DNA of 64,000 nt from a virus. Its lineage: Duplodnaviria; Caudoviricetes. Below the pieces are notes generated by a model. The model ran no database searches and was not told the origin of the DNA. It saw only the letters and a program-made list of their open reading frames with translations. The DNA lies in IMG/VR virus record IMGVR_UViG_3300020036_009553, positions 32,001 through 96,000 of that record, one strand, 5' to 3'. Below are positions 5,061-53,247 of the stretch, piece by piece (position 1 is the first letter of the stretch; each line of letters begins with the position of its first letter). Made by a program: the position numbers and the translations under genes.

Positions 5061-5507
5061 ATGTCCCAACCGGATGATATTTTTGACCAGGCTGCCAAGC
5101 GAAGTGTTCGTGATGTGGTGGAGGCAGCGATTAAACTCGCGTTGACTACCACTCCACGGGAGGTGTTGGACATTATGCTGATCGCCTGTGCACTTCAGGC
5201 AGGGCTCAAGTATTGCGTAGCTAATGCTAATCGCCGCGAAGTTTCTCAATCTATGAACTGGTATTCGAACTGTCACGATTTTGTGAACACTACAGCAGTC
5301 GGCCATCCAGATTTGGAAGTTGCTTTGAAAGATGCCATTCGTGGGGTTGATCATTATGTCGAGATAGTGGATTCTCTCAAAGACAAGTATGGAATTAATT
5401 TGATGGATTATTTCATGTTTAGCCGTAACAGCCATCTGGACCAGCGCCCCACGTACGCAGTGCTGGAAACGGACGCGAGGAGACGCCTGGGAATAATAAA
5501 TCTGTAG
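5061..5507 (+). CDS. Hypothetical protein
   Basis: Own promoter (~4993) and AAGGA RBS. Confidence 0.7.
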   Translation: MSQPDDIFDQAAKRSVRDVVEAAIKLALTTTPREVLDIMLIACALQAGLKYCVANANRREVSQSMNWYSNCHDFVNTTAVGHPDLEVALKDAIRGVDHYVEIVDSLKDKYGINLMDYFMFSRNSHLDQRPTYAVLETDARRRLGIINL

Positions 5508-5515
5508 TGCCGCCC

Positions 5516-6154
5516 GCCCGGGTGGTGAAATCGGTAGACACAAGGGACTCAACAGGGTCACTAGCGAAAAATGAATTGGTAGCCAGAAAACGTTGATATA
5601 TTATGATCAGCTAATCCAGGCGTAACAAGTCAAGGGAAACCCGCTAGTAGTATTTCCGTAAATTCGGCGAACGCTAAAACAAGCAGACGGCAAGGCATCT
5701 CGGTAAGAGCAAGGGACGAGGAAATAGTAACACTCGTGGTTAAATCTACTTATTGAGATGGTTAAAACTAGAATGCTTGTTATGCCAACGCCGAGCCGAG
5801 CCTGTACTTTGAACGGTGGACCGTTTAACTAAGTACCGTAGTGAGGATGCAACTGGCTTACTTAAATGTAAACAATGATAGTATCTGTGCCAGTAGAACC
5901 ATAAAGGTAAGTATAGGAAGGTGTAGAGACTAGAGACGGAATGCCTGGGCGGTAGGCTTACGGGATGCTGATATAATCCCGCCGAGTAACCGTATGGTGA
6001 TAGCATAGTCCAGACCACGAACAATCGCTCACGATTAGAAAACGAGTGAGTAATAGCTAAAGCAACGGGTAGCTAGATTGGCGGCGAAAACCGAAGTGGT
6101 AAGTAAAATCCCTCGCCGTAAGGCATGCGGGTTCGATTCCCGCCCCGGGCACCA
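5516..6154 (+). tRNA. tRNA-Leu(TAA) with group I intron (exons 5516-5549 and 6104-6154)
   Basis: GCCCGGG/CCCGGGC-A-CCA acceptor, AGGGA-CT|TAA-AA-TCCCT anticodon arm after splicing, long variable arm GCC-GTAA-GGC. Confidence 0.88.
5550..6103 (+). ncRNA. Group I self-splicing intron, no convincing ORF
   Basis: 5' exon ends in U; P1 GACUC-AACA-GGGUC with U.G; P AAATTCGGCGAA (~5660), Q AACGCCGAGC (~5787), R GTAGAGACTA (~5922), S CATAGTCC (~6004); terminal G6103. Confidence 0.88.
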
Positions 6155-7089: not shown

Positions 7090-9348
7090 ATGATCACGAA
7101 TCAATTCCAAGCTCCTGTTGAACGTTCCGGTGTTGCGGCTGAAAGTGTATTTCACATCAATGCCAGTGCAAAGGCATTTGAGATCCTTTCTTCCACATTG
7201 TACTCGGACAAAATTCAAGCGATCGTTCGGGAGCTAGCGTGCAATGCCTACGATGCTCACGTCGCTGCAGGAAATCAAGATACGCCGATTGAGATCCATT
7301 TGCCATCACCATTGGATGCCACATTTTACGTTAAGGATTTCGGCACGGGGTTATCCCGCGAACAAGTTGTTGGGCATACTGATGCCACGGGCCGTTTTAT
7401 TCCTGGGATCTATCAGACGTTTTTTGATAGCGACAAGACTGACAGTAATAATTTTATTGGTGCTCTCGGGCTTGGGTCAAAGTCACCATTTTCGTACACC
7501 AGTCAATTTACTGTGGAATCGCGGTTCAATGGAACATGCTACGTCTTCCTGGCGTTTAAGAATGAGGAAGGATTGCCATCAATTGTTGAAATCTCTCATG
7601 CTCCAACAATTGACCCTAATGGTCTGACAGTATCGTTGTCGGTTCGTTCGGAGGACATTGGTAAGTTTTTTAACGCTGCAAAGTTGGCGTTGATGTATTT
7701 CAATCCAGCTCCAACGGTTCTCGGGCGGTGGGATTTTGGATCTGCTCACAGGTTGGTTCACACCGTGTCAGGCACAAATTGGAAGATTCGTGAGGCGGAT
7801 TATTATGCCAATATGATTGGCCCTCGTGTTGTGCAGGGGTTTGTATCATATCCAGTTCTGACCCACATGTTATCTCAACATGTTGCTTTATCTGTAGGCG
7901 CCGCCGGATTGTTGAGCACAGATGTTGATTTGTACGTACCAATTGGAGAGATTGATGTTGCTCCCTCTCGTGAAGCGTTGTCTTATAACAAGAAAACATG
8001 CGTTAGTTTGATTACAGCTCTGGAACAGGCCGCCGATGAGATGCGGGCAGGGTTTCAGAGTTCATTCGACAAGTGCGCCACCAGGTGGGAGATGCTTTGT
8101 CTTCTCGAGAAGCTGACGAAGAGTTCTTCGCAGAAGTTCAATGCAGTATTTGCTTCAATGCATAAAAGCATCCCATTCACCTGGAACGGGGATGAAATTG
8201 CGGATGTAGTATCCATGGACCTGAGTGAGTGCTATCTCATGGGCATCCAGCGTGTATCACGATCAGTTAATCGTCGTGGTATTATGGCCCGCAAAGTGAA
8301 CATGTCGGACGTATGGGGGAAGGGTCGGGGAAGTTCAGATACTGCTGAGCTGCCATGTACTAATCCAAGCAAGATTAAGTTTTTGGTGGAGCGGACTGGG
8401 AAGGTGCTCGGGCCTGTGTTCTTTCAAGCATACACAGATACCTTTGGAGCTACGGAAGATCATCTGTTGTATGTGATTCGGTCCATTCCTGGTTGTGGGT
8501 ATTCTGCGGCTGAAACAAAGATGATTCTCGAGCAATTTGGGAATCCTCCCGTTGAGTATGCTGATGAGGTGATGGCAAAGGTACAAGTCGTTAAAAAACA
8601 ATACGTTAAGAAAGATAAAGAAGTTAAAATGTTTTGGACGGGGTTCCGTACCAAGCGCGTTCGTGGGAGGATGGTTGAAAATAATTCATACTCCCGTCTC
8701 ACATGGGACAATGCTACTTTTGATCCTTCGGAAGGTGGGTATTACGTAGTTGTTGATCGTTTTACGCCAATGAACGGTGATCAGCCAGTAGCCAACCTCA
8801 AACAATTCATTGGGGCTGCCCAGACGTTACATTATATCCCAGAAGGGGTTACGATATGGGGGCTAACGAAGAATGATGCTCGTGAAATCGAAGACGATGA
8901 GCAATGGATTAATGTGGTTACCGACACAGCTCTCCAATTCGAAACTGATAATGAACAAGGAGAGTTGACGAACAAGGTCAATGTAACAACCACACTGAAT
9001 CAAGTTCATCGTACCATGGGATGGGCATATTCGCGCATTGTCGGTGTGTGGACGCCTTCTATATCCCAAACATGTTGCGATGGAGAATTTAAGACATATA
9101 TTGAAAAAATCTATCAACTCATTCAAACTGCTGATGAGCCATGTGAAATAAAAGCAATCCGGTGCTTGGCTACTCAGTTTGGTGATTGTCTTCAGCAGAC
9201 GCCTGAGGCGATAGCCGCTATCACTTCTCAATGGGAAGCCATCCTCAAGAAATACCCAATGTTACAATTTATTGATTGTTCATACACTCATTCATCCGAG
9301 TTAGTTGCAATTATACTCGAATATATTGGGTTGGTGGAACGGAAGTAG
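7090..9348 (+). CDS. rIIA: rIIA-like protein (N-terminal GHKL/Hsp90-like ATPase)
   Basis: KAFEILSSTLYSDKIQAIVRELACNAYDAH, DFGTGLS, IGALGLGSKSPFSYT, PSREALSY motifs. Confidence 0.92.
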   Translation: MITNQFQAPVERSGVAAESVFHINASAKAFEILSSTLYSDKIQAIVRELACNAYDAHVAAGNQDTPIEIHLPSPLDATFYVKDFGTGLSREQVVGHTDATGRFIPGIYQTFFDSDKTDSNNFIGALGLGSKSPFSYTSQFTVESRFNGTCYVFLAFKNEEGLPSIVEISHAPTIDPNGLTVSLSVRSEDIGKFFNAAKLALMYFNPAPTVLGRWDFGSAHRLVHTVSGTNWKIREADYYANMIGPRVVQGFVSYPVLTHMLSQHVALSVGAAGLLSTDVDLYVPIGEIDVAPSREALSYNKKTCVSLITALEQAADEMRAGFQSSFDKCATRWEMLCLLEKLTKSSSQKFNAVFASMHKSIPFTWNGDEIADVVSMDLSECYLMGIQRVSRSVNRRGIMARKVNMSDVWGKGRGSSDTAELPCTNPSKIKFLVERTGKVLGPVFFQAYTDTFGATEDHLLYVIRSIPGCGYSAAETKMILEQFGNPPVEYADEVMAKVQVVKKQYVKKDKEVKMFWTGFRTKRVRGRMVENNSYSRLTWDNATFDPSEGGYYVVVDRFTPMNGDQPVANLKQFIGAAQTLHYIPEGVTIWGLTKNDAREIEDDEQWINVVTDTALQFETDNEQGELTNKVNVTTTLNQVHRTMGWAYSRIVGVWTPSISQTCCDGEFKTYIEKIYQLIQTADEPCEIKAIRCLATQFGDCLQQTPEAIAAITSQWEAILKKYPMLQFIDCSYTHSSELVAIILEYIGLVERK

Positions 9349-19093: not shown

Positions 19094-19867
19094 ATGATCA
19101 CTGCCACTCTTCACAAACAAGTTGTTGATACTGTTGTTGATGCATTGTCTACAGCTCAGACGAAGTACAAGACAGCGTTCAAGATGCCGTCAATCGTTTA
19201 TACCAAGCGTGGAACGACTGCAGGAACAGCTGACTACACCAAGTGGGAGATCAACCTCAATCCTGTTCTCCTCGTTGAAAATGTTGAGACGTTTCTCAAG
19301 CGCACTGTCATTCACGAAGTCGCTCACTTGGTTCATTTCATCGTTTGCCCAAAAGACCATGATCGTCGCTATGGCAAGAGAGATGTTCATGGGACAAATT
19401 GGCAGCGTGTGATGTCATCTTTGGGTGGCGAAGATGTGTCTCGTTGTCATTCATACGATGTGTCGTCAGTCATGCAAAACAGGGTGCGGTACGCACACAA
19501 GTGTTCAGTATGCGGCAACGAAGTCCAAGCAGGCCCCAAGTACCACAGCAGAATTGAAAACGGTGAGCGGTTCTTCCACAAGTCTTGTGGTCGTAATAGT
19601 TATCTCATGCCATCGTCGTCTACGGCAGTAAAAGCTACAACTGGTGTCAGCACACCAACGACGTCAAACAAATCGTCTACGGCGGTGAAAACACCAGCTA
19701 AAGGCAGTAAAATCCATCAGTGCTATGAGATGTACAAGATGTATCATCAAAAATACTCCAGGTCTATGATGATCAACGTATTCGTACAAAATTGTGACTG
19801 CACGCCTGCTGGGGCATCTACGTACTACCAAACATGTAAAAAAATGTACGATGCTGGTGTGGTATAA
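19094..19867 (+). CDS. SprT-like zinc metalloprotease with C-terminal GA.TYYQ domain
   Basis: RGTTAG.A, INLNPVLL.EN, HEVAH, HG..W..VM, zinc ribbon CSVCG; C-terminal CTPAGASTYYQ. Confidence 0.85.
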   Translation: MITATLHKQVVDTVVDALSTAQTKYKTAFKMPSIVYTKRGTTAGTADYTKWEINLNPVLLVENVETFLKRTVIHEVAHLVHFIVCPKDHDRRYGKRDVHGTNWQRVMSSLGGEDVSRCHSYDVSSVMQNRVRYAHKCSVCGNEVQAGPKYHSRIENGERFFHKSCGRNSYLMPSSSTAVKATTGVSTPTTSNKSSTAVKTPAKGSKIHQCYEMYKMYHQKYSRSMMINVFVQNCDCTPAGASTYYQTCKKMYDAGVV

Positions 19868-21580: not shown

Positions 21581-21652
<72 letters not shown>

Positions 21653-21992
21653 CAGATCAATTGGTTACGAAGCGAGTACTTTTGCTGCTTCCGCGTTCAG
21701 TGCTACCATACCCTTGAGGAGATGTTCCTCAATAAACAGCACGTGTTGAGCATCGAGGTCGTTCCATGTATTAACTGTTTCGCATTCAACGACGCCCTTT
21801 GAATCGGTTAGTTCAAATGTAACCGTAACAGTCTTTTTGTTTGCCATTTCATTCCTTTCAAATTTCGGGCGCGAGAAACAATTCCTCGGCATGTTTATTT
21901 ATGTAAAATCGGCAATAGTGCTCCTTTTAATTAAAATTGTTGACTTCACTTGAACATTCCTGTATAATTTCTTCATTAACTGGAGACAATAA

Positions 21993-23629: not shown

Positions 23630-23708
23630 CGGAATGTCGCCTAGTCAGGTTATGGCACCTGCTTTGGGAGCAGGTATAACGAGAGTTCGAATCCCTCCAT
23701 TCCGACCA
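23630..23708 (+). tRNA. tRNA-Pro(TGG)
   Basis: CGGAATG/CATTCCG-A-CCA; CCTGC-TT-TGG-GA-GCAGG. Confidence 0.9.
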
Positions 23709-25994: not shown

Positions 25995-26582
25995 ATGACC
26001 CAAACTCAAGCCATCGCCATCAGCACCATGACTTCAAACATCAACGTGGGCATGGACGAAGTTGTTTCGGTGTTCGTGGCAAAGTACGAAAGTGGACTTT
26101 TTGCAAAAAAGGACGATCTTTCTGCGAAGATTAAGGCGATTAAGCAGGAAATTGAACAAATCGATCGTGATCTGGTGAAGTCGGTTGATTCGACTGATTA
26201 CGACGTGACTGTTCCTAAGCTTGGTCTGTTGTTCAAGATGGGAGAAGTTCTTATTCATTGGGGTGAAACGTATCATCATGCCAAGAACACGATGATGATC
26301 GAAATTGCGATGTTCGATAAGTCGGATGATTATCAACGTGCGATATTCACGAAAATGGAAAATCGCCCAATTCCGGCTGATGTGGTGACAAAACGCGACG
26401 AAGCGAAAAGTCAACTGGCCGTTTTGACTGGTGAGTTGATGGAGGTGATGGGACTGATCAAATCGGTCAGTCGTAAAGAACGTCAAATTCGTGGGAAGAT
26501 TTCGGAGATGAAGTTGGCTGAAAGTGGCAAGGCTGGTTTGTTGGACAATCCCGAAATGTTGCAGTTGATTCAAATCAACTAA
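25995..26582 (+). CDS. Hypothetical coiled-coil protein
   Basis: AGGAG RBS; terminator AAGAGGGC-TGAAAG-GCCCTCTT follows. Confidence 0.8.
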   Translation: MTQTQAIAISTMTSNINVGMDEVVSVFVAKYESGLFAKKDDLSAKIKAIKQEIEQIDRDLVKSVDSTDYDVTVPKLGLLFKMGEVLIHWGETYHHAKNTMMIEIAMFDKSDDYQRAIFTKMENRPIPADVVTKRDEAKSQLAVLTGELMEVMGLIKSVSRKERQIRGKISEMKLAESGKAGLLDNPEMLQLIQIN

Positions 26583-26684
26583 CCTGAATGTTGTAATGTA
26601 AGAGGGCTGAAAGGCCCTCTTTTCGTTTCCGTTGACATTATCGCCGATACGTTGTATAATGATCTTCATCAACTGGAGACAATC

Positions 26685-26972
26685 GTGGCAACTTTCTATA
26701 CAGATGAATTTAAGTGGGCGGCAGCATCCAAGTCCTTCATTCAAGATGCCGCATATCTTGGTGGACATCCATTCCATGATCTGGGACAAGGACAGCATGG
26801 GCTAATACTCGTCAATAATTACAGCGATGTTGGAGTATTCACGATTGATCGGTGCTTCTCCGACGTCAAGTCAAAAAAAGTAACTGTGTCGTTGTCATCT
26901 CGTCCAGTAGGTAGTTGGTTTGATGCGATGGGGGTCGTTGTTGAAAACATGAATCAAGATTGGTTCATGTGA
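26685..26972 (+). CDS. Hypothetical protein
   Basis: GGAG RBS, GTG start, own promoter. Confidence 0.6.
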   Translation: MATFYTDEFKWAAASKSFIQDAAYLGGHPFHDLGQGQHGLILVNNYSDVGVFTIDRCFSDVKSKKVTVSLSSRPVGSWFDAMGVVVENMNQDWFM

Positions 26973-27791: not shown

Positions 27792-28139
27792 ATGACCACA
27801 ATGTATTATTTCGGGAATGTTTGTTGTCGTGGAGATACCCGCAAAATGTCTGGCACCATTGACTCGGAGAAGATTGACGAAGCATTTGCTGTGAGGGGCA
27901 ATGAAGAGTTGGTTGAAGAATACTGCGATGGGCAAGAAATCACCTCATCCAACTTCGACGAAGTCAATTTACTCTGTGGTATCGCTCAACCTTTCCTGCA
28001 CGACGCCGCCGAGTTTGAGAACTGGAAGAACAACAGGGCCTTCGTCCTTCTCATGGAGGAATGTGAATATGCTGTTGCCCCAACTCTTCGTGATGCCAAA
28101 GTAGCATGGGCTGAAATCGAAATAGACGTTGACTTTTGA
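27792..28139 (+). CDS. Acidic hypothetical protein
   Basis: Hairpin promoter 27725-27770, AAGGAG RBS. Confidence 0.7.
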   Translation: MTTMYYFGNVCCRGDTRKMSGTIDSEKIDEAFAVRGNEELVEEYCDGQEITSSNFDEVNLLCGIAQPFLHDAAEFENWKNNRAFVLLMEECEYAVAPTLRDAKVAWAEIEIDVDF

Positions 28140-28317
28140 CCCTGATGGAGCTATAATGGCTCCATCAACTGACAACACCACATAAATAAGGACTGAAATG
28201 GAAACGATCAAACTGGTAGCAATGGTGGTAGTGGTTATTCTCTTTGCCCCAACCATGTGCCGCATCGTCGCCGCTCTGGCAAGTGACGAAGACTTGACCA
28301 AATAATAAGGAACCACT

Positions 28318-28563
28318 ATGTCCAATCCCAACTCCAAAGAACTTTCCTCAAGGGATGCGCAAGCAATGCACCGCGATGCGCAACGTAACAAGTTTGCAGC
28401 TCTCAGGGCCGACACCCGCATCCATGTGTTCGATGGCTCCACATTGGTTGCTACTGTAGCTGACAAGGATGAGCTGGTCCGTCGTCGGCTGGAGTGGTTC
28501 AAGCTGCAGCACCCATTCATCATGGCAGCATCGGGGGATGAAATCAGCTTGCGCAGTCTCTAA
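28318..28563 (+). CDS. Hypothetical protein
   Basis: AAGGA RBS. Confidence 0.6.
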   Translation: MSNPNSKELSSRDAQAMHRDAQRNKFAALRADTRIHVFDGSTLVATVADKDELVRRRLEWFKLQHPFIMAASGDEISLRSL

Positions 28564-31057: not shown

Positions 31058-31288
31058 ATGAAAACCACCACTCAAACTCAGTTTCAACAAATTGACGGCT
31101 ATCTTTCATTGGAGGAAGCCACCGCAAGTTTGGTACACGTTGCGAAGTGCATGCAATCCACCCACACCGCCGCATCCTTCAACAGCAACAAAGACATCCA
31201 AGTTCGCCTGTTTGATGCGAGAAAAGCAAGTGTCAGAGTTCTCCTTAGCCTGATCGAACAGTATATTGACCAAATACCTGACGAGTAA
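31058..31288 (+). CDS. Hypothetical protein
   Basis: Same cassette and MKT start as 30666. Confidence 0.7.
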   Translation: MKTTTQTQFQQIDGYLSLEEATASLVHVAKCMQSTHTAASFNSNKDIQVRLFDARKASVRVLLSLIEQYIDQIPDE

Positions 31289-31356
31289 TTTGTGTTGACT
31301 TCTGTTGTTAGTTATTGTATACTTTGTTTTTCAACTAACAACAGAAGGAAAACAAA

Positions 31357-31773
31357 ATGTTTTCAAAAAGAATGTACATTAACGATGGTGACATGGGCAC
31401 TTTTGTTGGTGAACAAGTTGTTGGTTTAACGGAAACGTGGGTTAATAGTGATGGAACAACAACTGAATTTGATTACTGGAAGGAGTTGTTTGAAAATCAC
31501 TTTGTTGTGTACAACAACAAAGAGGAGTGCTTGAAAGAGTTTAATGAATGTGTTTTTGATGAAGATAAACATTTTAAGACTGACAAGGAATACTTTAGTA
31601 ACATGAAACGTATCAGTAACGTAAAACGTATGATTACGTTGTTGTGTGAAAAAGAAGAAGGGAAACAGGGCAAGTGGTTTGTTGGAGGAAACGGGGAATA
31701 TGATGTTATTGTTATTGTTGGGTTTGAGTTTGAAAGTGATAACGATGAACAAATAACATATTACGAAGAATAA
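31357..31773 (+). CDS. Acidic protein (paralogue of 31999-32361)
   Basis: INDGDMG...KEEC..EF...KWFVGGNGEYDV; no Ala or Pro. Confidence 0.75.
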   Translation: MFSKRMYINDGDMGTFVGEQVVGLTETWVNSDGTTTEFDYWKELFENHFVVYNNKEECLKEFNECVFDEDKHFKTDKEYFSNMKRISNVKRMITLLCEKEEGKQGKWFVGGNGEYDVIVIVGFEFESDNDEQITYYEE

Positions 31774-31782
31774 GTGTAACAA

Positions 31783-31817
31783 AACGAAAAGAACTGTACT
31801 GTACAGTTCTTTTCGTT
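31783..31817. terminator. Bidirectional terminator
   Basis: AACGAAAAGAACTGTAC-T-GTACAGTTCTTTTCGTT. Confidence 0.75.
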
Positions 31818-31998
31818 GTCTTCTCTGGTTAGGCTCAGTAATTGACTAGTAAACATTTAAGACCCTGAAACATCCAAGGGGATTGGAGTAATGATTGATC
31901 GCAAGGGATCGAACAGATACTCAACAGGGCATGTGATAAGTATAACTAATAAAAGAGAGAGAGAATTAATCTCTCTCTCTCTTCTCTCTTCTTCTTAT

Positions 31999-32361
31999 TT
32001 ACTCATACACAAATTCATAAATTTCATCAAGTTCATAAAGTTCATAATCAAATTCATCAACATTAACTTCACAAACAAAGCCCCATAATACTTCATATTC
32101 ACCATCATCACCCATAAACCACTTTTTCTCTTCATCATATAATAAAATCATTTCTTTAAAATCTTTCAGCCCTTTTTCATAAACTTCTCTCAACTCTTCT
32201 TTCTCAACTCTCAACATTTTAACAAACTTCTCTTCACACTCTTCTTGAGTGCCCCACTCTTTATTCAGTTCATCAAAATAAACTTCACTCTCTTTCATCA
32301 TTTTCAACATAAAACCTCTATCACTATCACTAATACAAACAACTTTCTCAAACATATTCAT
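31999..32361 (-). CDS. Very acidic protein encoded by a nearly C-free coding strand
   Basis: ISDSDRG...EEC...KWFMGDDGEYEV; promoter TTGTTT-17-GATAAT (~32417-32445); terminator 31951-31983. Confidence 0.8.
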   Translation of the reverse strand: MNMFEKVVCISDSDRGFMLKMMKESEVYFDELNKEWGTQEECEEKFVKMLRVEKEELREVYEKGLKDFKEMILLYDEEKKWFMGDDGEYEVLWGFVCEVNVDEFDYELYELDEIYEFVYE

Positions 32362-32605
32362 TTTTCTCTCTCTTTCTCAATCAATTAATATTAACTTCTC
32401 TCTTTACAACAAGAACATTATCTCACAAAACAAACAAAAAAACAACTACTTTTTCAAACATACAGTCTCTCATTAAATAACAACACCATACTACAATCCA
32501 ACACACCATTCAACAACTCTAATTCTAAATGAACAGTCCTGTTGATTTTAATAGAGAGATATTGTATAATGGTTTCATCAACTGACAACACACAAGGAGA
32601 TTCAA

Positions 32606-33263: not shown

Positions 33264-33788
33264 ATGAACTTCGCCATTCTCGAAGAACTGATGAAAGAAG
33301 TCAATGGTGCGACGTTCGTATCGATCGATACGATCACGAGCGTGACGTTACCAGGTGGCAAGAAAAACGAGTTCAATGGTCGTGTGACGAAGTTGGTGGA
33401 AGGATCGTCGGTCATGGTCTTTCAAAACAAGAACTCGAATGCTTACGAGAACATGGTCAACAGGAGACTGGAGAAGGAGGGAGTTTCAGTCGCAACGTTC
33501 AAAGTCGGTCCTCGTGCGTGGGGCACTCGTATCCAAGATACTCCATTCGTCGAACACAACGGACAGATGTACCTTGAAGTCATCTTCCTTCACGCAGGGG
33601 AAGCATCGTACCTGCTCGACGGCCAAAAGACAACAGACCCACGCTGCATTCCTCCTTCGAAGGAAACTGGTGAAGGGAACGGTTTCGAGCAGGGCGGCTT
33701 GAACAACAAGGTGATTATTCGTACCTACAAGGTCGATTCCATCGTCGGCATTACGATCAACAAACAGCGATTCGAGATCAAGAGGTAA
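33264..33788 (+). CDS. Hypothetical phage protein
   Basis: Cassette promoter; YENMVNRRL..EG, PRAWG.R...PFVEHNG..YLE. Confidence 0.8.
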   Translation: MNFAILEELMKEVNGATFVSIDTITSVTLPGGKKNEFNGRVTKLVEGSSVMVFQNKNSNAYENMVNRRLEKEGVSVATFKVGPRAWGTRIQDTPFVEHNGQMYLEVIFLHAGEASYLLDGQKTTDPRCIPPSKETGEGNGFEQGGLNNKVIIRTYKVDSIVGITINKQRFEIKR

Positions 33789-34792: not shown

Positions 34793-35104
34793 TTACTTCA
34801 CTACTTTGGGACGATGTGCACAGTAAAAGATGACTGCCACCACACATTCATCCGAATTAACGAACACGGTAGTGATGGTTCCTTCCCCCACTGATGCGAA
34901 ACGATCACGGAGATGATGTGTACGATCAATGACGACATCATCTCCCTTCTTGTTGAGGAACTTCAACACCGTGTCTTCGAGGAGGGAGAGATCATTACCC
35001 ACCCAGTCGATGGTGTGAGTGTCCTCACCACCTCCGACGATGATAGGATCGAGGACACTACCACACTGACAGTTGTGTGAACATCCATACCGATATGACT
35101 TCAT
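34793..35104 (-). CDS. Hypothetical protein
   Basis: GAGGAG RBS and minus-strand promoter 35130-35159. Confidence 0.7.
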   Translation of the reverse strand: MKSYRYGCSHNCQCGSVLDPIIVGGGEDTHTIDWVGNDLSLLEDTVLKFLNKKGDDVVIDRTHHLRDRFASVGEGTITTVFVNSDECVVAVIFYCAHRPKVVK

Positions 35105-35128
35105 GTCTACTCCTCTCATTAAAGAAGT

Positions 35129-35191
35129 CATTATACATCATTGTGAGTCGTGAGTCAACTGTTGACTTCTTTGATTGAATGATGTATAATG
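35129..35191. promoter_or_regulatory. Back-to-back divergent sigma70 promoters
   Basis: CATTATACATCATT...GTCAAC-T-GTTGAC...AATGATGTATAATG. Confidence 0.8.
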
Positions 35192-35320
35192 TAGTCTAAT
35201 GAGTGAGAGATAGATTAAGAGAAAAGTTAAACAGGGCAGTCGAGTTATATACAAATATATAGACGATGGTCGTGTATGTCAGGTACCTGGTACACGTTCA
35301 TATATCAATTTATTTTCCAC

Positions 35321-35391
35321 ATTCCAATTTAACATTTCCATCCACATTCCAACTCAACAATTCCAATTTAACATTTCCATCCACATTCCAA
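35321..35391 (+). repeat. 32 bp direct repeat x2 in a G-free tract
   Basis: ATTCCAATTTAACATTTCCATCCACATTCCAA at 35321 and 35360. Confidence 0.85.
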
Positions 35392-35517
35392 TTTAACAAT
35401 TCTGAAACAATATTTTTAAAAATCTCGTTTTCAAAAATTTTTTTTGAAATTTTTTACCCGTGAAAATGGGTTTCTCTCTGCACCACTTATCCAATAGTTA
35501 TAGGAGCATTATTAAAA

Positions 35518-36369
35518 ATGACCACATTTATTAGTCCGCAACGACACAATATCGCTACTATTGAGGGTGATGTGATCGTGAAAATCAACAATCAACAATT
35601 TCTCACGACCACTGCATATTTCACAAAAAATAAAAATAATTCCGATTCCTTTTATGCTGGGCAATGCAGTAAGACTGGTCGGTGTTCCAAAATGTTATCA
35701 GCCGCAAAAATAACTGTACCACACAAAGCAACAACTGAATTCTTTCTGGATCTGGTCGATTCTGTTATTGATAATGTCACATCAAATTACACACGTATTC
35801 CTGCCCCAGTCCGTACTATATCCCTATGGGGAGCTATCTGGATTTTCATTTCTGAAATCGACGAGCGTTGCAATTTGCATATCACTTGTGCGATTTATCC
35901 GGATCGGCTTACTGCGATCCCAATGAATGTTGGAGATGGAGCGTTTTATTGGGGGGTAGATGAGGAAACACATTTTATTACAAAGAAAGAAGAACTCAAG
36001 AAAGAAGGAACAACGTCCCCAAAAAATGAAATTAAATTCATTCATGGTCGGTGGTATGATACTCGCGTGGGGGAGGGGAATAGTGGGCTTGTACCAACTG
36101 GGGGATATACTATTGCATATCGTGACAATGGGAATGGGACATATACATTTGGTGGAACGCGGTGTAGTGAAGATGATGTGTTCTGTAAACAGACGGGTCG
36201 GGATGTTGCTGCAGTCAGGTTGAATACAGCAAGATTTTCAAATGGAACGAAACAGTCACATACGATTGAGTGTTTATCAGATAAAGTCTTCTATGATGGT
36301 GTGGTGAAGGCGTTTGCTTCACTGGTGTATCCACGACAACGACATTATACACTGAGAACAAAAAAATAA
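35518..36369 (+). CDS. Paralogue 1 of the IKFIHGRW...CS.DD.F.K..GRD.A family
   Basis: C-terminal domain shared with 36410 and 37764. Confidence 0.8.
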   Translation: MTTFISPQRHNIATIEGDVIVKINNQQFLTTTAYFTKNKNNSDSFYAGQCSKTGRCSKMLSAAKITVPHKATTEFFLDLVDSVIDNVTSNYTRIPAPVRTISLWGAIWIFISEIDERCNLHITCAIYPDRLTAIPMNVGDGAFYWGVDEETHFITKKEELKKEGTTSPKNEIKFIHGRWYDTRVGEGNSGLVPTGGYTIAYRDNGNGTYTFGGTRCSEDDVFCKQTGRDVAAVRLNTARFSNGTKQSHTIECLSDKVFYDGVVKAFASLVYPRQRHYTLRTKK

Positions 36370-39746: not shown

Positions 39747-40481
39747 ATGAGAATCATTTCTAAATTCAAAGATTATTACGATTATATTGCCCATTTATAT
39801 GGTAGTGATCCGATGATCGTGTATCATCGTAAAGATCTCGACAAAGGGGTAGTAAAAGGTAATGTGTGTTATTATGACACGATCAACATCACCAAAAAGT
39901 CATCGTTTGGACATTTTACATTTAGCGCGCAAGGCAGGTTGTCACCCGATTCAGCAGATTATAAGTGGAGAATGTATGATTTAATGTATCTTTGTATTAA
40001 TGGATCATCATATCTCTGCCTGCGGGATACATCAATACCAAAGAGTTCATGGCAATATTATGAAAATATCCCTGGAGCTAGTGAACATGTTACCATCCGG
40101 TATTTTAATCCAAAAAAATGGTATTGGGTTAATACCAAATTAACAATCGGTCAATTAAATGGAACGGTTGTGTTTCCTGAATTGGTAGAAATTTGTAGGG
40201 AATTACAAGCTCCAGTATTTTTATTCAAGGTTAACCATCTCATTGATGATAAGGTAGAGTTTGTTATCGAAGGAAAGGTGCCAGTTCTATCTGAATTGGG
40301 GATGGCTAAAATATATCCTCCAACGCAATTGTACCAAGACCTATCATATTTCATGGCAAACACAATAAGACCATCTCCTGATACCACCCCTCCTGTCAAA
40401 TTAACAGATACTCAAAGAATATCTCAGCGTGGATTTGATTTAGTTACATCTTTTAGAGGACCTCGTAATGGCAAAACGTAA
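39747..40481 (+). CDS. Hypothetical phage protein
   Basis: MRIISKFKDYYD N-terminus, GFDL.TSFR C-terminus. Confidence 0.8.
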   Translation: MRIISKFKDYYDYIAHLYGSDPMIVYHRKDLDKGVVKGNVCYYDTINITKKSSFGHFTFSAQGRLSPDSADYKWRMYDLMYLCINGSSYLCLRDTSIPKSSWQYYENIPGASEHVTIRYFNPKKWYWVNTKLTIGQLNGTVVFPELVEICRELQAPVFLFKVNHLIDDKVEFVIEGKVPVLSELGMAKIYPPTQLYQDLSYFMANTIRPSPDTTPPVKLTDTQRISQRGFDLVTSFRGPRNGKT

Positions 40482-41337
40482 GAATCTTGTACAACCATTT
40501 TCATTTGCGGACGCGAAGACAAAAGCTCTTCGTGATTTTGAATTTGATTATGATCGTACTCCATTTGAGCTGCAACCCCTTCCCACTCGTAGATTTGAGG
40601 TAGGAGAAAGCATTATTGTTGGGCGGTTAGATCAATGTGTTGTTGAGGAAGTGCTGTTCGATGGAATGGCGTATCTATATTCTGCGATGTGGAAGGCACG
40701 GGAAACTGAGGAACCATCGCGTGTGTGTCGCGTATCGTGGTGGTTTGAAATATTCAAAAAAGTGAATAATGATGGGGTTCCTTGCTTAATGACTCCATCA
40801 TCTCGTCACCATCCTACCTCGGGAGTACTTGGATCTATCATGCATTTTTTGCTGTGTGGTGGATTGGTGTGTGATCCTACGTACCAACGAGAATACGTAT
40901 GGTCAGAAGCAGATAAAGATTCGTTAATTGAATCAATTTTTGATCGTGTTCCAATTGGATCAGTGTTGTTGGTTCGTCATGCTGGGTATAATCATTCGGG
41001 TGATCGCACTCTCCGAAAATATACAACCCTTGCTGGCATTGCAGTCACTGTTGAGGCAGGTAATGATTACACTATTTCAATCGTGGACGGTCAGCAACGA
41101 TTGACGACGATTGTCGATTTCGTGATGGATAAACGTTCATTCAAAGGGCGATACTTTTCACAATTGAACATTAGAGACATTCGTGATTTTGATAATACTC
41201 CAATCACATATTGGCTGATCAAGGAAGAAGAAACAACCCAAAAAGAAATAATTAAATTGTTCTTGCAGTGTAACCGTGGGGTTTCTCAAACACCCGCACA
41301 TTTGGAAAAAATTCGTGCACTATACGAAGAAATGTAA
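40468..41337 (+). CDS. DUF262 / ParB-like domain protein
   Basis: PTYQREYVWS...LIESI...PIG, IVDGQQRLTT, F...N.G. Confidence 0.85.
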   Translation: MAKRKNLVQPFSFADAKTKALRDFEFDYDRTPFELQPLPTRRFEVGESIIVGRLDQCVVEEVLFDGMAYLYSAMWKARETEEPSRVCRVSWWFEIFKKVNNDGVPCLMTPSSRHHPTSGVLGSIMHFLLCGGLVCDPTYQREYVWSEADKDSLIESIFDRVPIGSVLLVRHAGYNHSGDRTLRKYTTLAGIAVTVEAGNDYTISIVDGQQRLTTIVDFVMDKRSFKGRYFSQLNIRDIRDFDNTPITYWLIKEEETTQKEIIKLFLQCNRGVSQTPAHLEKIRALYEEM

Positions 41338-47228: not shown

Positions 47229-47266
47229 GATAAATACCCACATCAAAGGTCGCGGTGGAGTATTCT

Positions 47267-48037
47267 ATGTTCAAGAAACATCTGGGAGTATCATTATTAG
47301 TTGTGATTATTACGTTGGTAGCGTTATTATTACCAATCGTCTCCGCAGTGTATTTTAGTTACCACAATAGTCTTCACGACCGCAGAGGACAAGCTGAAAG
47401 TATGGTTAATACAGCGATCCATATTATTAATCATCAATATCTTCATTACACAAGAGGAGATAAGACCGAGGGACAAGCACAAAAAGATGCCATCGAATTG
47501 ATCCAATTGCTTCGATTTGGAGATAATGATTATGTGTGGATAATACGGGAAATTGATGTTGTAATGCTAATGCACCCCGATGAGAGATTGGTTAACACCA
47601 ATGTGAATAATCTCTCAGATGAGAATGGAACGCGTGTTTACCAAGCAATGCAGGATGCAGTGTTTCCACTTGGGTTTGGGTATATGAGTTATTGGTGGCC
47701 TAAACCAGATCATATGGATGGCCTCTCACACGAAAAGATATCTTATATTAGACGATCTTCTAAGTGGGGATGGATAATCGGAGCAGGAATTTACACAGAT
47801 GATATACTGTTTACAATATGGCAAAGTAAATTTAGGTATTTTATATTGTTTAACATATCTGTCACCATAATAATTATTTGTTTGTATGTACATAGTAAGT
47901 TGATAGTTCAACTATCCGTTCGGTCTTCCAGCCGCCGTTTTAATGATGAACAATTATCGAAAGAGGTTCAAAATGACAACCCCACCCTCCTCCCAGAAAA
48001 GCTCCCCTCCCCTCCCCGTATGGATGCATTATTGTAA
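47267..48037 (+). CDS. TM-single Cache (sCache_2)-TM sensor with no signalling domain
   Basis: AQKDAI..I..LRFG.NDYVWI, MHP, D.NG, G.GY..Y.WPKP, K.SY.....WGWIIGAGIY.DD. Confidence 0.85.
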   Translation: MFKKHLGVSLLVVIITLVALLLPIVSAVYFSYHNSLHDRRGQAESMVNTAIHIINHQYLHYTRGDKTEGQAQKDAIELIQLLRFGDNDYVWIIREIDVVMLMHPDERLVNTNVNNLSDENGTRVYQAMQDAVFPLGFGYMSYWWPKPDHMDGLSHEKISYIRRSSKWGWIIGAGIYTDDILFTIWQSKFRYFILFNISVTIIIICLYVHSKLIVQLSVRSSSRRFNDEQLSKEVQNDNPTLLPEKLPSPPRMDALL

Positions 48038-48215
48038 GTGCAATCGTTTGCAAGATGCCATTGCATTCATTCAACATAAAGCTGAAAGTGGGTGGAATGT
48101 GATGGTTCAACCGTTTGTAACTAAACAAGATATGTTGGATCTTGGTCATGATATGACTATGCCAATTCCCACTGAATGGACTTTCATCATCTTTAAATTA
48201 TAAAGAAAGAATATC

Positions 48216-48818
48216 ATGCAGCATTTTGAAAAATTACGGTTAGCTCTTCGATATTATTTATTGGGGAAAGAATATTATGTAGCTCTGTCTGCATTAGATT
48301 ATGGTGCTCAATATCATACAGGAGTCCGAAAAAATGGTATTACTCCAGAGTATCAACATCAAATTGAAATTGCCCAATACGTAAGAACGTTATCGTTGAT
48401 TTATCCCGAAACAGCCATAGCAGTGGCTCTTTTACACGACGTTACTGAAGATTATGATGTGACTGTGAGAGATTTGTCAACAAATTTTGGGTATGATATT
48501 GCTGAAGCGTGCGAATTGTTAAATAAAAATGATAAGACAACTGAAGAATATTATAGAGGATGTGCCGAACATCCCACCGCGTCTATAGTCAAAGGTGGCG
48601 ATCGTATCCATAACATTCAAACTATGATAGGTGTGTTCACTCCTGACAAACAACGCCGGTACATTGATGATGTTAGAACACATATTCTGCCAATGATAAA
48701 AAAAGCAAAACGAGCATTCCCTCAACAAGAGTCAGCATATGAGAATATAAAACACATGCTGGTTAGTCAAATTGAATTATTAGAGCATATTTTGAAAGTA
48801 CCCCATGACACGAAGTAG
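48216..48818 (+). CDS. HD-domain (p)ppGpp hydrolase-like protein (small alarmone hydrolase)
   Basis: H.G.RK.G..P...H, ALLHDVTED, VK..DR.HN. Confidence 0.8.
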   Translation: MQHFEKLRLALRYYLLGKEYYVALSALDYGAQYHTGVRKNGITPEYQHQIEIAQYVRTLSLIYPETAIAVALLHDVTEDYDVTVRDLSTNFGYDIAEACELLNKNDKTTEEYYRGCAEHPTASIVKGGDRIHNIQTMIGVFTPDKQRRYIDDVRTHILPMIKKAKRAFPQQESAYENIKHMLVSQIELLEHILKVPHDTK

Positions 48819-49665
48819 ATATTGGTCAAACAGCGATTTCGCTAAAAAAATAACAGACACATTTGGTGGGAAGCGCAAACCAACGGCAGCAACCATGAGC
48901 GAATGGGACAAATGGCATAAAGAAGCGCAACGGCAAGCACCCTTTGTGTATTGGTTCACAGAGAAATTTCTTGACCAGGTGCAGAGCTGGGTGTGTTATC
49001 CAACAGATAAGTTATCAGATTTCCGTTATTATTTGCGCAATCGGTTTGTTGACAAGACGCATTATTGTAAAACTGGTCTACCTCCGGGGAAATATAATGA
49101 CACAGGAACTCGCATATTTCATGGCATGTTTAATGAACTTGTAGATTTTGTTGAAATTGATAAAGCCCACCAACAGGAAATATGGGGGGGGGACACAGAC
49201 GAGTTCAACGCTCCAAAGCGTAAAGGGCTTTTTATGAAATGGTGGTTTCATTGGTCACGGTGGAGATGCCCAGCCGCTGGCATTGCGTATTTAACGTGGG
49301 AATCTACATTGGTGAGCGATTCCTCCATGGGTGCGTCAATCAGCAAGGTTGTCCTTGACCCATCGTCGCAAGACGTGCAGTCAATAGAGCCGTCAATTCA
49401 GGCGATAGAAGCTAGGGAAATTCTTGATCTGTACACCTGGTGGACACAAATCCGCCCATTACGAATTGATCCATATGATGCGTCTGGTTGGTCAGAGTTG
49501 TGTAAACAATATCCGAGCTTTGATTTTGATAATGAAACACCTGAAATACGTGACCAAAAAAGCACATCCATTGATGCCTTGCATAAATTGGAAAAACAAT
49601 ATGATGATGAGGACATTGAAATGATGATTAGGTTAGTAAAAATCCATCAGCGGCTCTGGGTATAA
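48805..49665 (+). CDS. Trp-rich hypothetical phage protein
   Basis: Long ORF; EI.DLY.WW, D.EM..RL.KI. Confidence 0.75.
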   Translation: MTRSRYWSNSDFAKKITDTFGGKRKPTAATMSEWDKWHKEAQRQAPFVYWFTEKFLDQVQSWVCYPTDKLSDFRYYLRNRFVDKTHYCKTGLPPGKYNDTGTRIFHGMFNELVDFVEIDKAHQQEIWGGDTDEFNAPKRKGLFMKWWFHWSRWRCPAAGIAYLTWESTLVSDSSMGASISKVVLDPSSQDVQSIEPSIQAIEAREILDLYTWWTQIRPLRIDPYDASGWSELCKQYPSFDFDNETPEIRDQKSTSIDALHKLEKQYDDEDIEMMIRLVKIHQRLWV

Positions 49666-49725
49666 TACTTGTTGTCTTTTACATAATCCCGTAGTATAAT
49701 AAACGCTTCAATAGGAGATTTTTTT

Positions 49726-50169
49726 ATGCGCGCTTATTTTTTTACTAATATGTATCTATCCTCAATTCAACAAGGAATTCAACCACTGCACTGCATTGTT
49801 GAAATGATGGCAACCGCTTGGCCTAATCATATACGAGATATTTTATACGATTGGGCTTTTAACCATAAGACTGTTATTTGTTTAAATGGTGGAGCTACAG
49901 GCAACGTATGTGAGATTTATGACCGCGTTAAACTTCTCGGCAAAAGACTAGACCTCCCGTTTGGATCCTTCAACGAGGATGAATACTCACTATCTGGCAT
50001 AAAAACAACTTGTGGAATTATAGTTCCAAGCGTCATTTACGAATTGGCACAAGACCTGCGGTCGAATAGGTGGTTAACTAAGGACGGAGACCGAAGTATA
50101 ATGGAGGCATATAGCTCCGATGAAATCGCATTAGCCAAACTTCTAAACGAATGTTCACTGGCACATTAA
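49726..50169 (+). CDS. Putative peptidyl-tRNA hydrolase 2-like protein
   Basis: NMYLSSIQQGIQ..H, W...HKTVICLNGG, F.ED...L....T..GIIVP pattern recalls the Pth2 fold. Confidence 0.5.
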   Translation: MRAYFFTNMYLSSIQQGIQPLHCIVEMMATAWPNHIRDILYDWAFNHKTVICLNGGATGNVCEIYDRVKLLGKRLDLPFGSFNEDEYSLSGIKTTCGIIVPSVIYELAQDLRSNRWLTKDGDRSIMEAYSSDEIALAKLLNECSLAH

Positions 50170-50185
50170 TTTTTAAGGAATATAA

Positions 50186-50566
50186 ATGATCACAAAATCA
50201 CCCCATGCTGGTACCATTTCACAACACGTATTTTGCACACTCCAAGTGGAAGGCATCCACCAGTGGAGTGAATGTCCTCTTGAAGAAGTGGAATACCTAC
50301 GCCACCCACATAGGCATCTTTTCCACGTAAAAGCGATTTTGGAGGTTACACATTCAAATCGAGATGTTGAGTTCATTGTGTTGAAGCATGATATTGGAGC
50401 ATATATTAATTTAAAATATTTTGATTCTGGATGGAATCTTTGTAATTTTGGAAATATGTCATGCGAAATGATTGCAAAAGATTTATTGATTCAATTTGAT
50501 TTAACCTCATGTGAGGTTAGCGAAGATGGTGAAAATGGCGCCATCGTATCGTACCGTCGGCTGTAA
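50186..50566 (+). CDS. QueD/PTPS-like T-fold protein
   Basis: H.W...HPHRH.FHV, RDVEF, SCEMIA, EVSED. Confidence 0.6.
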   Translation: MITKSPHAGTISQHVFCTLQVEGIHQWSECPLEEVEYLRHPHRHLFHVKAILEVTHSNRDVEFIVLKHDIGAYINLKYFDSGWNLCNFGNMSCEMIAKDLLIQFDLTSCEVSEDGENGAIVSYRRL

Positions 50567-51054
50567 TGATAACATATATCACCCAGGATGTTTGTGATGT
50601 CCGCGATGGAATTATTGTCCATGGGTGTAATTCACGCGGCGTAATGGGGGCAGGAATCGCTCGGGCTATCAAAGTAAAATGGCCAAAGGCGTTTGAATCT
50701 TACAAAAAGCATTTGCTTCATTGTTCCCAACATAGAATCCCTGCGTTAGGAACTTGGGCGTTGGTAAAGGTGGATGAAACGTTGTTGGGTGATGTGTATG
50801 TAGCAAATGTTATCTCTCAATTAAATTATGGTAGGCAGCCAGGGTATGCATATGCTAGTGTTACGGCAATTGAACAAGCCCTTGCGTCTCTTTTTCGGCA
50901 CATTAACCTAAATTTTTTTGGGGTTCCAATCTACATGTCAATGATTGGCTGTAATCTCGGGGGATTAGATTGGGACCATGATGTAAGACCTATAGTTGAA
51001 TCATTAGATTCTATATATTCATCATCACTAACAATATATGTGTGCTCATTATGA
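50566..51054 (+). CDS. Macrodomain (ADP-ribose processing) protein
   Basis: IVHGCNSRGVMGAGIA..IK.KWP, IGCNLGGLDW. Confidence 0.88.
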   Translation: MITYITQDVCDVRDGIIVHGCNSRGVMGAGIARAIKVKWPKAFESYKKHLLHCSQHRIPALGTWALVKVDETLLGDVYVANVISQLNYGRQPGYAYASVTAIEQALASLFRHINLNFFGVPIYMSMIGCNLGGLDWDHDVRPIVESLDSIYSSSLTIYVCSL

Positions 51055-51677
51055 AAAAATATACTGCTATTCAAGTTCGTACAGAACGCGATGAAATTTT
51101 GGCGCATTTGTTGAGGCTATCAAAAGCTGATCGTTATTTGCGGTTTTGTCACACCGCTAGTGACGAAGCGGTAATGAAGTATGTCGATAATATTGATTTG
51201 CGTTCTTCTACTGAGGCGGTATTTGCCGTGTTTGGGAATAATCAACGCATTGTAGCAATGTGTCATATTGCCCCTTGCACAGATATTCCCAATGCTGCTG
51301 AAATAGCACTAAGTGTGGATGAAAAATTCCGCCAACGTGGGGTGGGCCGTGTGGTATTTAAACGTGGAATGTTGTATTGTGAATCTTTGGGAATAAAGAA
51401 CATCCACATGAATTGCTTAGCGAGTAATTTACCGATTCAGCGATTGGTACGTGGGTTTGGAGTAAGAATTGTAACTGAATATGGTGAATCAGAAGCTAAT
51501 ATGAAACTAAAAGACAAAAATGCAATAGTGGCATTTTTGGAAGGTGTTCAAAACGACACAATTGGTCAAATAGATTTGACGTTACGGCATGCTACACATC
51601 AATGGGTAGAACATATTAATAAAATTACGTCTATAATTACACGCCACGCACCTAAAGAACAAAAGAAAGGAAAATAA
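51051..51677 (+). CDS. GNAT acetyltransferase
   Basis: DRYLRF, AEIALSVD..FRQRGVG, CLASN. Confidence 0.8.
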   Translation: MKKYTAIQVRTERDEILAHLLRLSKADRYLRFCHTASDEAVMKYVDNIDLRSSTEAVFAVFGNNQRIVAMCHIAPCTDIPNAAEIALSVDEKFRQRGVGRVVFKRGMLYCESLGIKNIHMNCLASNLPIQRLVRGFGVRIVTEYGESEANMKLKDKNAIVAFLEGVQNDTIGQIDLTLRHATHQWVEHINKITSIITRHAPKEQKKGK

Positions 51678-52309
51678 TGTTAATCGCTATTAGCGGATCC
51701 CAAGGATCAGGCAAATCAACAATTATTGAAACCCTAATTAAAAATAATCCTACTTATCATTGTGTTGATAGGAAAACATCGCGTTCAATATTGTCTGATT
51801 GGGGAGTGTCTTTAGCAGAAGTCAATGCTGACCCAGCCCTGACTTTGAGGTTTCAGGAAGAGATTTTGGAGCGCAAAGTGGCAGATGATCGTAATGCGGT
51901 ATTATCAAATGGAATTTGGTTTACTGAAAGAACTCCAATTGATTTGTTGGGGTACGCAACTGTTCAGCTCGGTGCCGATAATCAATATTCTACTTGGTTG
52001 GATGATTACGCCACTCGGTGTTTATCTGTTGTAAATAACTTATCCCTTTATGATCATATCTTTTTCCTGACGGCAGGACATTTCTCGGTATCATCAGATG
52101 GGGTACGAGGACACAATCAATATTACAGTACATTGGTGGATGCTGCCATGGCAAAATTTCATACCAAATATGTGCAATCACACTTGATTACTGTGATTGA
52201 TAGTCCTGATATGGACGAACGACTCAATCAAATCAATAATAAAATACTAAAACTCACCACGCGTCAATTTCATAAGAATGACTGGAACATTGACGGTAAA
52301 ACAACATAG
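51677..52309 (+). CDS. P-loop nucleotide kinase-like (AAA_28-type) protein
   Basis: IAISGSQGSGKST, ERTPID, DGVR. Confidence 0.8.
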   Translation: MLIAISGSQGSGKSTIIETLIKNNPTYHCVDRKTSRSILSDWGVSLAEVNADPALTLRFQEEILERKVADDRNAVLSNGIWFTERTPIDLLGYATVQLGADNQYSTWLDDYATRCLSVVNNLSLYDHIFFLTAGHFSVSSDGVRGHNQYYSTLVDAAMAKFHTKYVQSHLITVIDSPDMDERLNQINNKILKLTTRQFHKNDWNIDGKTT

Positions 52310-52317
52310 GAAAAATA

Positions 52318-53247
52318 ATGACAGATACTACAGCACAAAAAACAGAAACAAAACCATTTGATTGGGAGTTAGCAATCACAAAAGATGATATTCCTGATCC
52401 ACAGAATTATCATTTGAATACCCATGCAAAAATCACAATTCCAAAAGTAGGGATTACCAAACTCCATCTTCCTATAAATGTTGCTAGACGTGATGGTGAA
52501 ACGATCACCGTCAAAGGTACTGCGAGTGCATACGTGTCGTTGGATAGTGTAGAATCTCGTGGTATTAACATGTCAAGATTGGCTAAGGGATTCTACGAGC
52601 ACGTAGATGGTGCGGGCCGAACGGTGTTGCTTGATTTTATTAAAGTCGTTCAAGGGTACAAGGAGAGTCTTCCAGCCAAAGATGGATATTTGAAAGTTCG
52701 TTTTGATTATCCATATCAACAAAAACATTGGAGAGAAGATCATTTTGGTTGGTTGTATTATCCAACAACATTTGAAGTTTGTGATGTTGGTGGCTTACTC
52801 AAAACATATTTGACTGTTGTGTATACTTACAATAGTGCCTGTCCGTGTTCTTATGAACTTGCGAGATATTCAAGAGAGCAACTCAATACTCCAGCAATTT
52901 CACATTCTCAACGAAGTGAAGCAACCGTTCGTATCGAATTTGACCCCCACGCAAAAGACCTTCTTTGGATTGAAGACGTGATTGATATTTGTCGTAAAGT
53001 TCAACCAGCAGAAGTGCTGTCTGGAATTGTTACACGTGTTGGTGAATTTAGTATGGCGCAACAAGTGGCGAGTGAGGAAAATATTGGGTTTGTTGAGGAT
53101 GTTCTTCGAAAGTTCTGGATGTCATTGAACAATGAACCACGTATCTTAGACTTCTCTGTTGGGGTATGTCATTATGAGTCACTAAACGATAATTATGCTG
53201 CTGGGTTCATCAATAAGTCGTTAATGTCCAATACCGGGCTGAGTTAA
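52318..53247 (+). CDS. folE2: GTP cyclohydrolase IB
   Basis: VGI, RGINMSRL, SACPCS, HSQRS, FVED..R, H.ESL. Confidence 0.88.
   Translation: MTDTTAQKTETKPFDWELAITKDDIPDPQNYHLNTHAKITIPKVGITKLHLPINVARRDGETITVKGTASAYVSLDSVESRGINMSRLAKGFYEHVDGAGRTVLLDFIKVVQGYKESLPAKDGYLKVRFDYPYQQKHWREDHFGWLYYPTTFEVCDVGGLLKTYLTVVYTYNSACPCSYELARYSREQLNTPAISHSQRSEATVRIEFDPHAKDLLWIEDVIDICRKVQPAEVLSGIVTRVGEFSMAQQVASEENIGFVEDVLRKFWMSLNNEPRILDFSVGVCHYESLNDNYAAGFINKSLMSNTGLS

Follow-up and report, generated by a model that had tools for sequence, protein, structure and literature searches.

Why should one small early gene of an uncultured T4-like phage, together with its leader, its promoter region and half of its terminator, be written almost entirely without cytosine? 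The gene lies on the minus strand of the window analysed here, a 64,000-nt stretch (positions 32,001 to 96,000) of the 128,415-bp virus record IMGVR_UViG_3300020036_009553, which is estimated to be 57% complete. A preliminary description of the window had counted only 10 G on the plus strand over 567 nt and inferred selection for expression under a base-specific attack. We find that every count it gave holds, and that its interpretation is only partly supported. Protein composition and background skew do not account for the bias, a mutational origin explains it poorly, and selection is probably keeping this one message independent of C.

A cytosine-poor predicted transcription unit

The block at 31964-32530 contains A 200, T 201, C 156 and G 10 on the plus strand. 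Across 567-nt intervals of the whole record, G averages 21.6% (sd 2.9); the block has 1.8%, the next lowest value is 12.2%, and no other base reaches so low a value anywhere. GC skew in 32001-32500 is −0.86, compared with values between −0.20 and +0.34 elsewhere in the window. The gene within the block has the lowest coding-strand C of 190 ORFs (2.2%; mean 19.6%, sd 3.6; next lowest 8.6%). The limits of the block are sharp: to the left, G resumes at 31963 in the second arm of a hairpin, and to the right at 32531, followed by 32536, 32541 and 32544, with DNA of normal composition on both sides. Read on the minus strand, the block forms a single unit, whose promoters and terminator are predicted from sequence alone, listed here with two plus-strand features beside it:

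31964-32530 (−): cytosine-poor block, 10 C in 567 nt; the longest G-free run on the plus strand is 144 nt.
32522-32551 (−): candidate upstream promoter P1, TTAAAA-18-TAGAAT; the block begins 3 nt before its −10, and its spacer holds 4 C.
32417-32445 (−): candidate promoter P2, the better of the two, TTGTTT-17-GATAAT with an extended −10 (TGaGATAAT); its −35 lacks the C of the TTGAC used by four of the five neighbouring aligned cassette promoters.
32362-32530 (−): upstream and leader DNA, 2 C in 169 nt, with a weak Shine-Dalgarno (GAGAAAGAGAGAGAAAAATG; GAGAAAGAGAGAGAAAA) and a 28-codon upstream ORF (32423-32509) that repeats the MFEKVV start of the gene.
31999-32361 (−): 120-codon ORF encoding an acidic protein (36 D+E, 15 K+R; net charge about −21); its 8 C lie in codons L32 CTG, G37 GGC, T38 ACT, Q39 CAA, L65 CTG, G94 GGC, L108 CTT and L111 CTT.
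31951-31985 (−): intrinsic GA/TC hairpin terminator with a purine-only 5′ arm (AGAAGAGAGAGAGAGA), a TTAAT loop and a 3′ arm (TCTCTCTCTCTTTT; 31963-31953) that holds the only cluster of C.
31860-31950 (+): decayed PeSL (promoter-early stem-loop) leader, CTGA-AACATCCAAGGGGATTGGAGTAATG, with SD, ATG and a truncated ORF start, abutting the block.
31357-31773 (+): convergent distant paralogue, 138 aa, with its own PeSL-type promoter (31295-31323) and terminator (31783-31817).

All G of the terminator stem sit in the first arm and all C in the second, such that the first C after the stop codon lies 35 nt downstream. The unit is inverted within an array of plus-strand one-gene cassettes, six of which, when aligned, share a promoter and stem–loop leader, GTTGACTTGATGGAG...TATAAT...CTCCATCAACTGACAAC...AAGGAGA. 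This is the PeSL architecture of T4-type hyperplastic regions (PMC2839356), and the phage also carries rIIA and rIIB. The target lies within this array but is not itself a PeSL unit, as its promoter has no such stem–loop and lies on the other strand. The decayed leader beside it looks like the remnant of a plus-strand cassette that the inverted one may have displaced. The upstream DNA does not appear to be a duplicated gene fragment, since the overall alignment is not significant and only a 19-nt repeat, matching at 17 of 19 positions, is borderline.

The ORF is real. All three stop codons are C-free, and the chance of a stop at any codon in this composition is 0.112, such that 121 open codons have P of about 6e-7; none of 20,000 shuffles gave a stop-free run as long as the observed 125 codons (longest 109). 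G occupies 44% of first codon positions. The frame is thus kept open by selection while its letters are constrained.

Bias beyond protein composition

The protein has no Ala, Pro or His and one each of Thr and Gln, which together make up 1.7% of residues, compared with a phage mean of 23.6% (sd 5.5). The phage carries tRNA-Thr(UGU) (21581-21653) and tRNA-Pro(UGG) (23630-23708), for two of the amino acids that the gene avoids. With this amino-acid sequence and the codon usage of the genome, 27 C are expected and 8 are observed (exact P = 1.7e-7), where the minimum possible is 2. The observed/expected ratio is 0.30, and among the twelve ORFs with the lowest synonymous z-scores the next lowest is 0.80. 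C at codon positions 1/2/3 is 4.1/0.8/1.7%, compared with 17.3/23.6/17.9% in the genome, a 4- to 28-fold depletion, and the 169 nt upstream of the ATG hold 1.2% C, 16-fold below the mean of 18.9% for all genes (lowest other gene 8.9%). Protein composition explains only part of the bias, and full explanation by amino-acid composition and background skew, which had been set beforehand as the refuting condition, is therefore excluded.

Searches for the function of the protein returned no named relative. There were no PHROG hits, a phmmer search of 1.8 billion representatives found only a 99% twin (P0001), which has Ala where this gene has Val101, and an Atlas search gave nothing. A single-sequence AF2 model reached only pLDDT 38; with 10 sequences it reached pLDDT 66 and a predicted beta-beta-(beta)-alpha-alpha-beta-beta layout, with no fold match (best Foldseek E-value 0.27–0.8, best VIA Z 4.2). 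With known anti-defence or DNA-mimic proteins such as Ocr, Arn and ArdA, the only shared trait is acidity. A search of RNA families gave only hairpin noise.

A profile search, however, found a handful of metagenomic proteins of 74–138 aa that share three motifs with the target and the convergent neighbour: MFxK..GDxG, KEECxKEF and GKWFVGxNGEYxVxVGFEFE. The paralogy with the neighbour, as proposed in the preliminary description, is therefore real, though distant (27% identity; E = 0.008 against 900 ORFs of the genome). All ten sequences of the family lack Pro and have at most 2 Ala, and the homologues, at 25–48% identity, contain 0–10% Ala+Pro+His+Thr+Gln. The homologue P0010, only 26% identical to the target, has none of these five in 112 residues. 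The thrift in C-requiring amino acids is thus a long-held family trait, most extreme in two distant members, rather than a recent event. At the DNA level, searches for related loci, exact searches of the viral, metagenome and genome collections, and tblastn against GenBank phages found nothing for the target or its family.

In the neighbour the effect is mild. Its CDS has 8.6% C, mostly explained by its amino acids (36 observed against 45 expected, P = 0.02), and it has no Ala or Pro. It also has no CC dinucleotide, as had been noted, but this is weak (P = 0.035 on shuffles). The PeSL unit in front of it (31278-31359) has a different stem sequence and only 5 C in its leader, compared with 8–10 in five other units, which may be a mild version of the same bias.

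Orientation alone is not the cause, as other inverted genes in the same early region (34793-35131, 27969-28523 and 26034-26798) have 21–26% C. Nine loci of related phages, found through the neighbouring gene 33264-33788 (47–57% identity), have no base-depleted stretch, and five such records have no homologue of the target. Two complete relatives (198 kb and 364 kb) have no 300-nt window below 10% of any base. Elsewhere in the genome, a T-poor tract at 1257-1823 is not the same phenomenon: it reflects an ordinary gene (1215-1799, +) for a 194-aa Ala/Lys/Glu-rich low-complexity protein written in GC-rich codons (GCC, AAG), with 5.5% T in 200 nt and codon usage that differs from the rest of the phage. 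A non-coding tandem repeat at 35300-35460 (two copies of about 40 nt, GGAATGTGGATGGAAATGTTAAATTGGAAT), between the divergent genes 34793-35131 (−) and 35518-36369 (+), is C-poor on the minus strand. It contains a 107-nt G-free run on the plus strand, the second longest in the genome, and may be a regulatory or iteron-like element.

What may keep C out of the message

We consider it well supported that selection on the nucleic acid keeps this unit C-free: the ORF is maintained, depletion is as strong at non-synonymous position 2 and in non-coding DNA as at synonymous sites, the terminator postpones C to its last arm, and the protein-level signature is shared by distant homologues. The analysis establishes the bias, its limits, the reality of the ORF, the excess over protein composition and the family-wide thrift in C, whereas selection rather than mutation, the transcript limits, the agent and the role of the product are inferred. 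The preliminary description had proposed CTP depletion, C-containing RNase motifs such as the MazF site ACA, palindromic restriction sites, or modified or ADP-ribosylated G in the template, with the product as the matching counter-defence. Selection linked to a base-specific stress is plausible but unproven, and neither an attack, its identity nor a counter-defence role is shown. Avoidance of ACA or of palindromic sites follows trivially from the lack of C. Rho and a strand-specific mutational origin were not among its candidates.

Our favoured mechanism, held tentatively, acts at the step of RNA synthesis. In this view, RNA polymerase can make the message without CTP and never reads a template G, such that the gene would still be transcribed to its end when CTP is scarce or poisoned by chain-terminating analogues, or when template G is modified, adducted or excised. 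C would reappear only in the second arm of the terminator, where a stall would no longer matter, and the product would be a fail-safe early protein, possibly a counter-defence factor. Viperin-type defences do make ddhCTP, ddhGTP and ddhUTP chain terminators (10.1101/2023.09.13.557418), and the −35 of P2 lacks the consensus C and is paired with an extended −10. However, no defence is known to deplete CTP itself, and ddh-nucleotides reportedly hit T7 RNA polymerase rather than the host enzyme that T4-like phages use (Bernheim et al. 2021). Ten C remain, four of them at sites that could change synonymously. In addition, C is missing for 120 nt upstream of P2 as well as from the −35 of P2 itself, which is awkward for every RNA-level reading: either the weaker P1 is a real start, with a leader of about 155 nt and a transcript equal to the block, or the constraint lies on the DNA. 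Sequence alone cannot separate this reading from evasion of Rho or RNases.

Somewhat less likely is immunity of the nascent or finished RNA, in which a C-free message would offer no 5′-YC sites for termination factor Rho and no C-containing motif (ACA, ACY, GCU, UAC and others) for mRNA interferases, and would survive when translation is uncoupled or toxins are switched on. Rho needs C-rich, G-poor single-stranded RNA and binds 5′-YC (PMC6144790). The sense RNA has 2 YC dimers in 567 nt, the genome minimum (mean 61, sd 13.7), and no [(YC)N9-13]6 motif, such that by composition alone it has the features of a Rho-resistant transcript. It folds weakly (−91 kcal/mol, compared with −142.5, sd 19, for random 565-nt segments), and its only C cluster is paired inside the terminator hairpin. 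A weak Shine-Dalgarno and a possibly 155-nt leader would otherwise invite Rho. ACA, UAC, GATC, GGAG, CC and CG are absent, but the absence of GGAG is not significant (P = 0.05), no RegB was found, and the other absences follow from having only ten C; two GCU sites remain. Moreover, escaping a motif does not require removing every C, and a translated CDS is already shielded from Rho.

A template free of modified guanine is unlikely, though possible. In this reading the phage replaces G in its DNA with a 7-deazaguanine, and the template strand of this gene, the one strand without the modified base, would be read at a time, at a speed or by an enzyme that modified templates do not allow. FolE2 is present (52318-53247, 154.7 bits), as the preliminary description had stated. 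The QueD-like gene it mentioned was found only outside the window, as a short PTPS/QueD-like stretch (26.4 bits) in a 306-aa protein at record positions 7892-8812 (L041:4393-5313, L041 being a locus outside the window). A NUDIX protein at 5459-5887 (L041:1960-2388) has a gene that is also C-poor (11.9%). The two complete relatives lack FolE2, TGT and any base-depleted block. Against this reading, no TGT/DpdA and no QueC was found in the 57%-complete record, and about 190 other genes, including consensus early promoters, have ordinary G in their templates. The coding strand of this gene is 27.5% G, so the duplex would still be modified, and 7-deaza bases are not known to block polymerases. A hydroxymethyl-C pathway is not supported either, as no thymidylate-synthase-family gene was found. 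FolE2 closes a run of genes (47255-53247) for a Cache-domain protein, an HD_4 (RelA/SpoT-type) hydrolase, a Macro domain, a GNAT acetyltransferase and an AAA_28 P-loop protein, which may be a nucleotide-signal or ADP-ribose counter-defence cluster. Phage proteins with a GmrSD_N (DUF262) domain and with a SprT-like domain are encoded at 40468-41337 and 19094-19867.

A mutational footprint, in which C-to-T deamination of the displaced non-template strand (through heavy transcription, R-loops or a deaminase) burnt out the C of a weakly constrained ORFan without benefit, is also unlikely but remains possible. The block coincides with the predicted transcription unit, its composition is close to that of the paralogue with C turned into T (T 34.4% vs 30.2%, C 2.2% vs 8.6%), the protein is enriched in Met, Tyr, Phe, Val, Cys and Trp, the products of C-to-T changes, and the one difference from the 99% twin is a C/T site. 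However, the ORF stayed open although CAA, CAG and CGA would become stop codons, and depletion is strongest at codon position 2, where protein constraint should resist most. No other gene shows anything similar, whether strongly promoted or inverted, and the family-wide lack of Ala and Pro points to a long-held state.

It is more doubtful still that the plus strand is the working one, as a G-free, C-rich, unfoldable RNA that loads Rho and kills read-through entering the inverted gene from the plus-strand array. The antisense RNA has 100 YC dimers (top 0.4% of windows), nine times the genome density of Rho-site motifs and an MFE of −26.7 kcal/mol, and it opens with a (UC)n run. Yet two hairpin terminators already stand between the plus-strand promoter and the block, a rut site needs about 80 nt rather than 567 nt and a remodelled protein, and other inverted genes in the array have normal composition. 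That the C-poverty is merely a by-product of an acidic, Glu/Lys/Phe/Val-rich protein and local skew, although the whole family needs few C, is refuted by the 8 C observed against 27 expected and the 1% C of the non-coding flanks.

A more speculative possibility, which we consider somewhat less likely than not, is that phages carry an undescribed class of 'three-letter' early genes, whole transcription units purged of one nucleotide so that a first-responder protein is still made when the host or the phage itself sabotages a base-specific step: an NTP pool, a chain-terminating analogue, base excision or modification of one template base. This locus would be a C-free member, and its acidic ORFan family the matching counter-measure. 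If selection is the cause, the missing letter points directly at the base-specific step under attack during infection and marks a small protein of unknown function as a likely answer to it. It would also give a simple compositional search for new counter-defence genes in metagenomic phages, and a natural 'one-NTP-free' expression cassette.

Comparison with known systems

Avoidance of short motifs, such as restriction sites or ACA, is a known viral counter-measure, whereas full-text searches found no description of natural genes lacking one nucleotide across promoter region, leader, coding sequence and terminator, at the cost of five amino acids. In ACA-less, MazF-resistant mRNAs, both natural site-free genes and the engineered single-protein-production system, a message is kept free of one trinucleotide by codon choice so that it alone survives an attack on RNA. 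The target also has no ACA, but here a whole letter is avoided, in the leader and promoter region as well as the CDS, and no toxin is identified. The G-less and C-less cassettes used for in vitro transcription let RNA polymerase run without one NTP until the first occurrence of the missing base, and the block has the same anatomy, C-poor up to the second arm of the terminator. Those are laboratory constructs, we found no natural coding example in the literature, and one methods paper states that most natural DNA and RNA lack long three-letter stretches (PMC6526412).

Phage DNA with 7-deazaguanine in place of G involves DpdA, a TGT-family transglycosylase, and the preQ0 pathway (FolE, QueD, QueE, QueC), of which FolE2 and the weak QueD-like hit are present here. 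A G-free template is the one strand that such chemistry cannot touch, although no such phage is reported to carry G-free templates. The PeSL cassettes of T4-type phages RB49 and phi1 (Arbiol et al. 2010, PMC2839356) provide the same setting, a hyperplastic region of small ORFan early genes, each behind a strong sigma-70 promoter joined to a stem–loop, but the target does not use a PeSL promoter, is inverted and carries the letter bias, and PeSL cassettes are not described as biased in composition. Finally, Rho utilisation sites and C>G bubbles (PMC6144790) belong to the only well-known bacterial machinery that reads RNA almost at the level of a single letter. The block is the extreme anti-rut on its sense strand and an extreme rut on its antisense strand, but rut regions are about 60–80 nt and non-coding or antisense, rather than a 567-nt unit with a remodelled protein.
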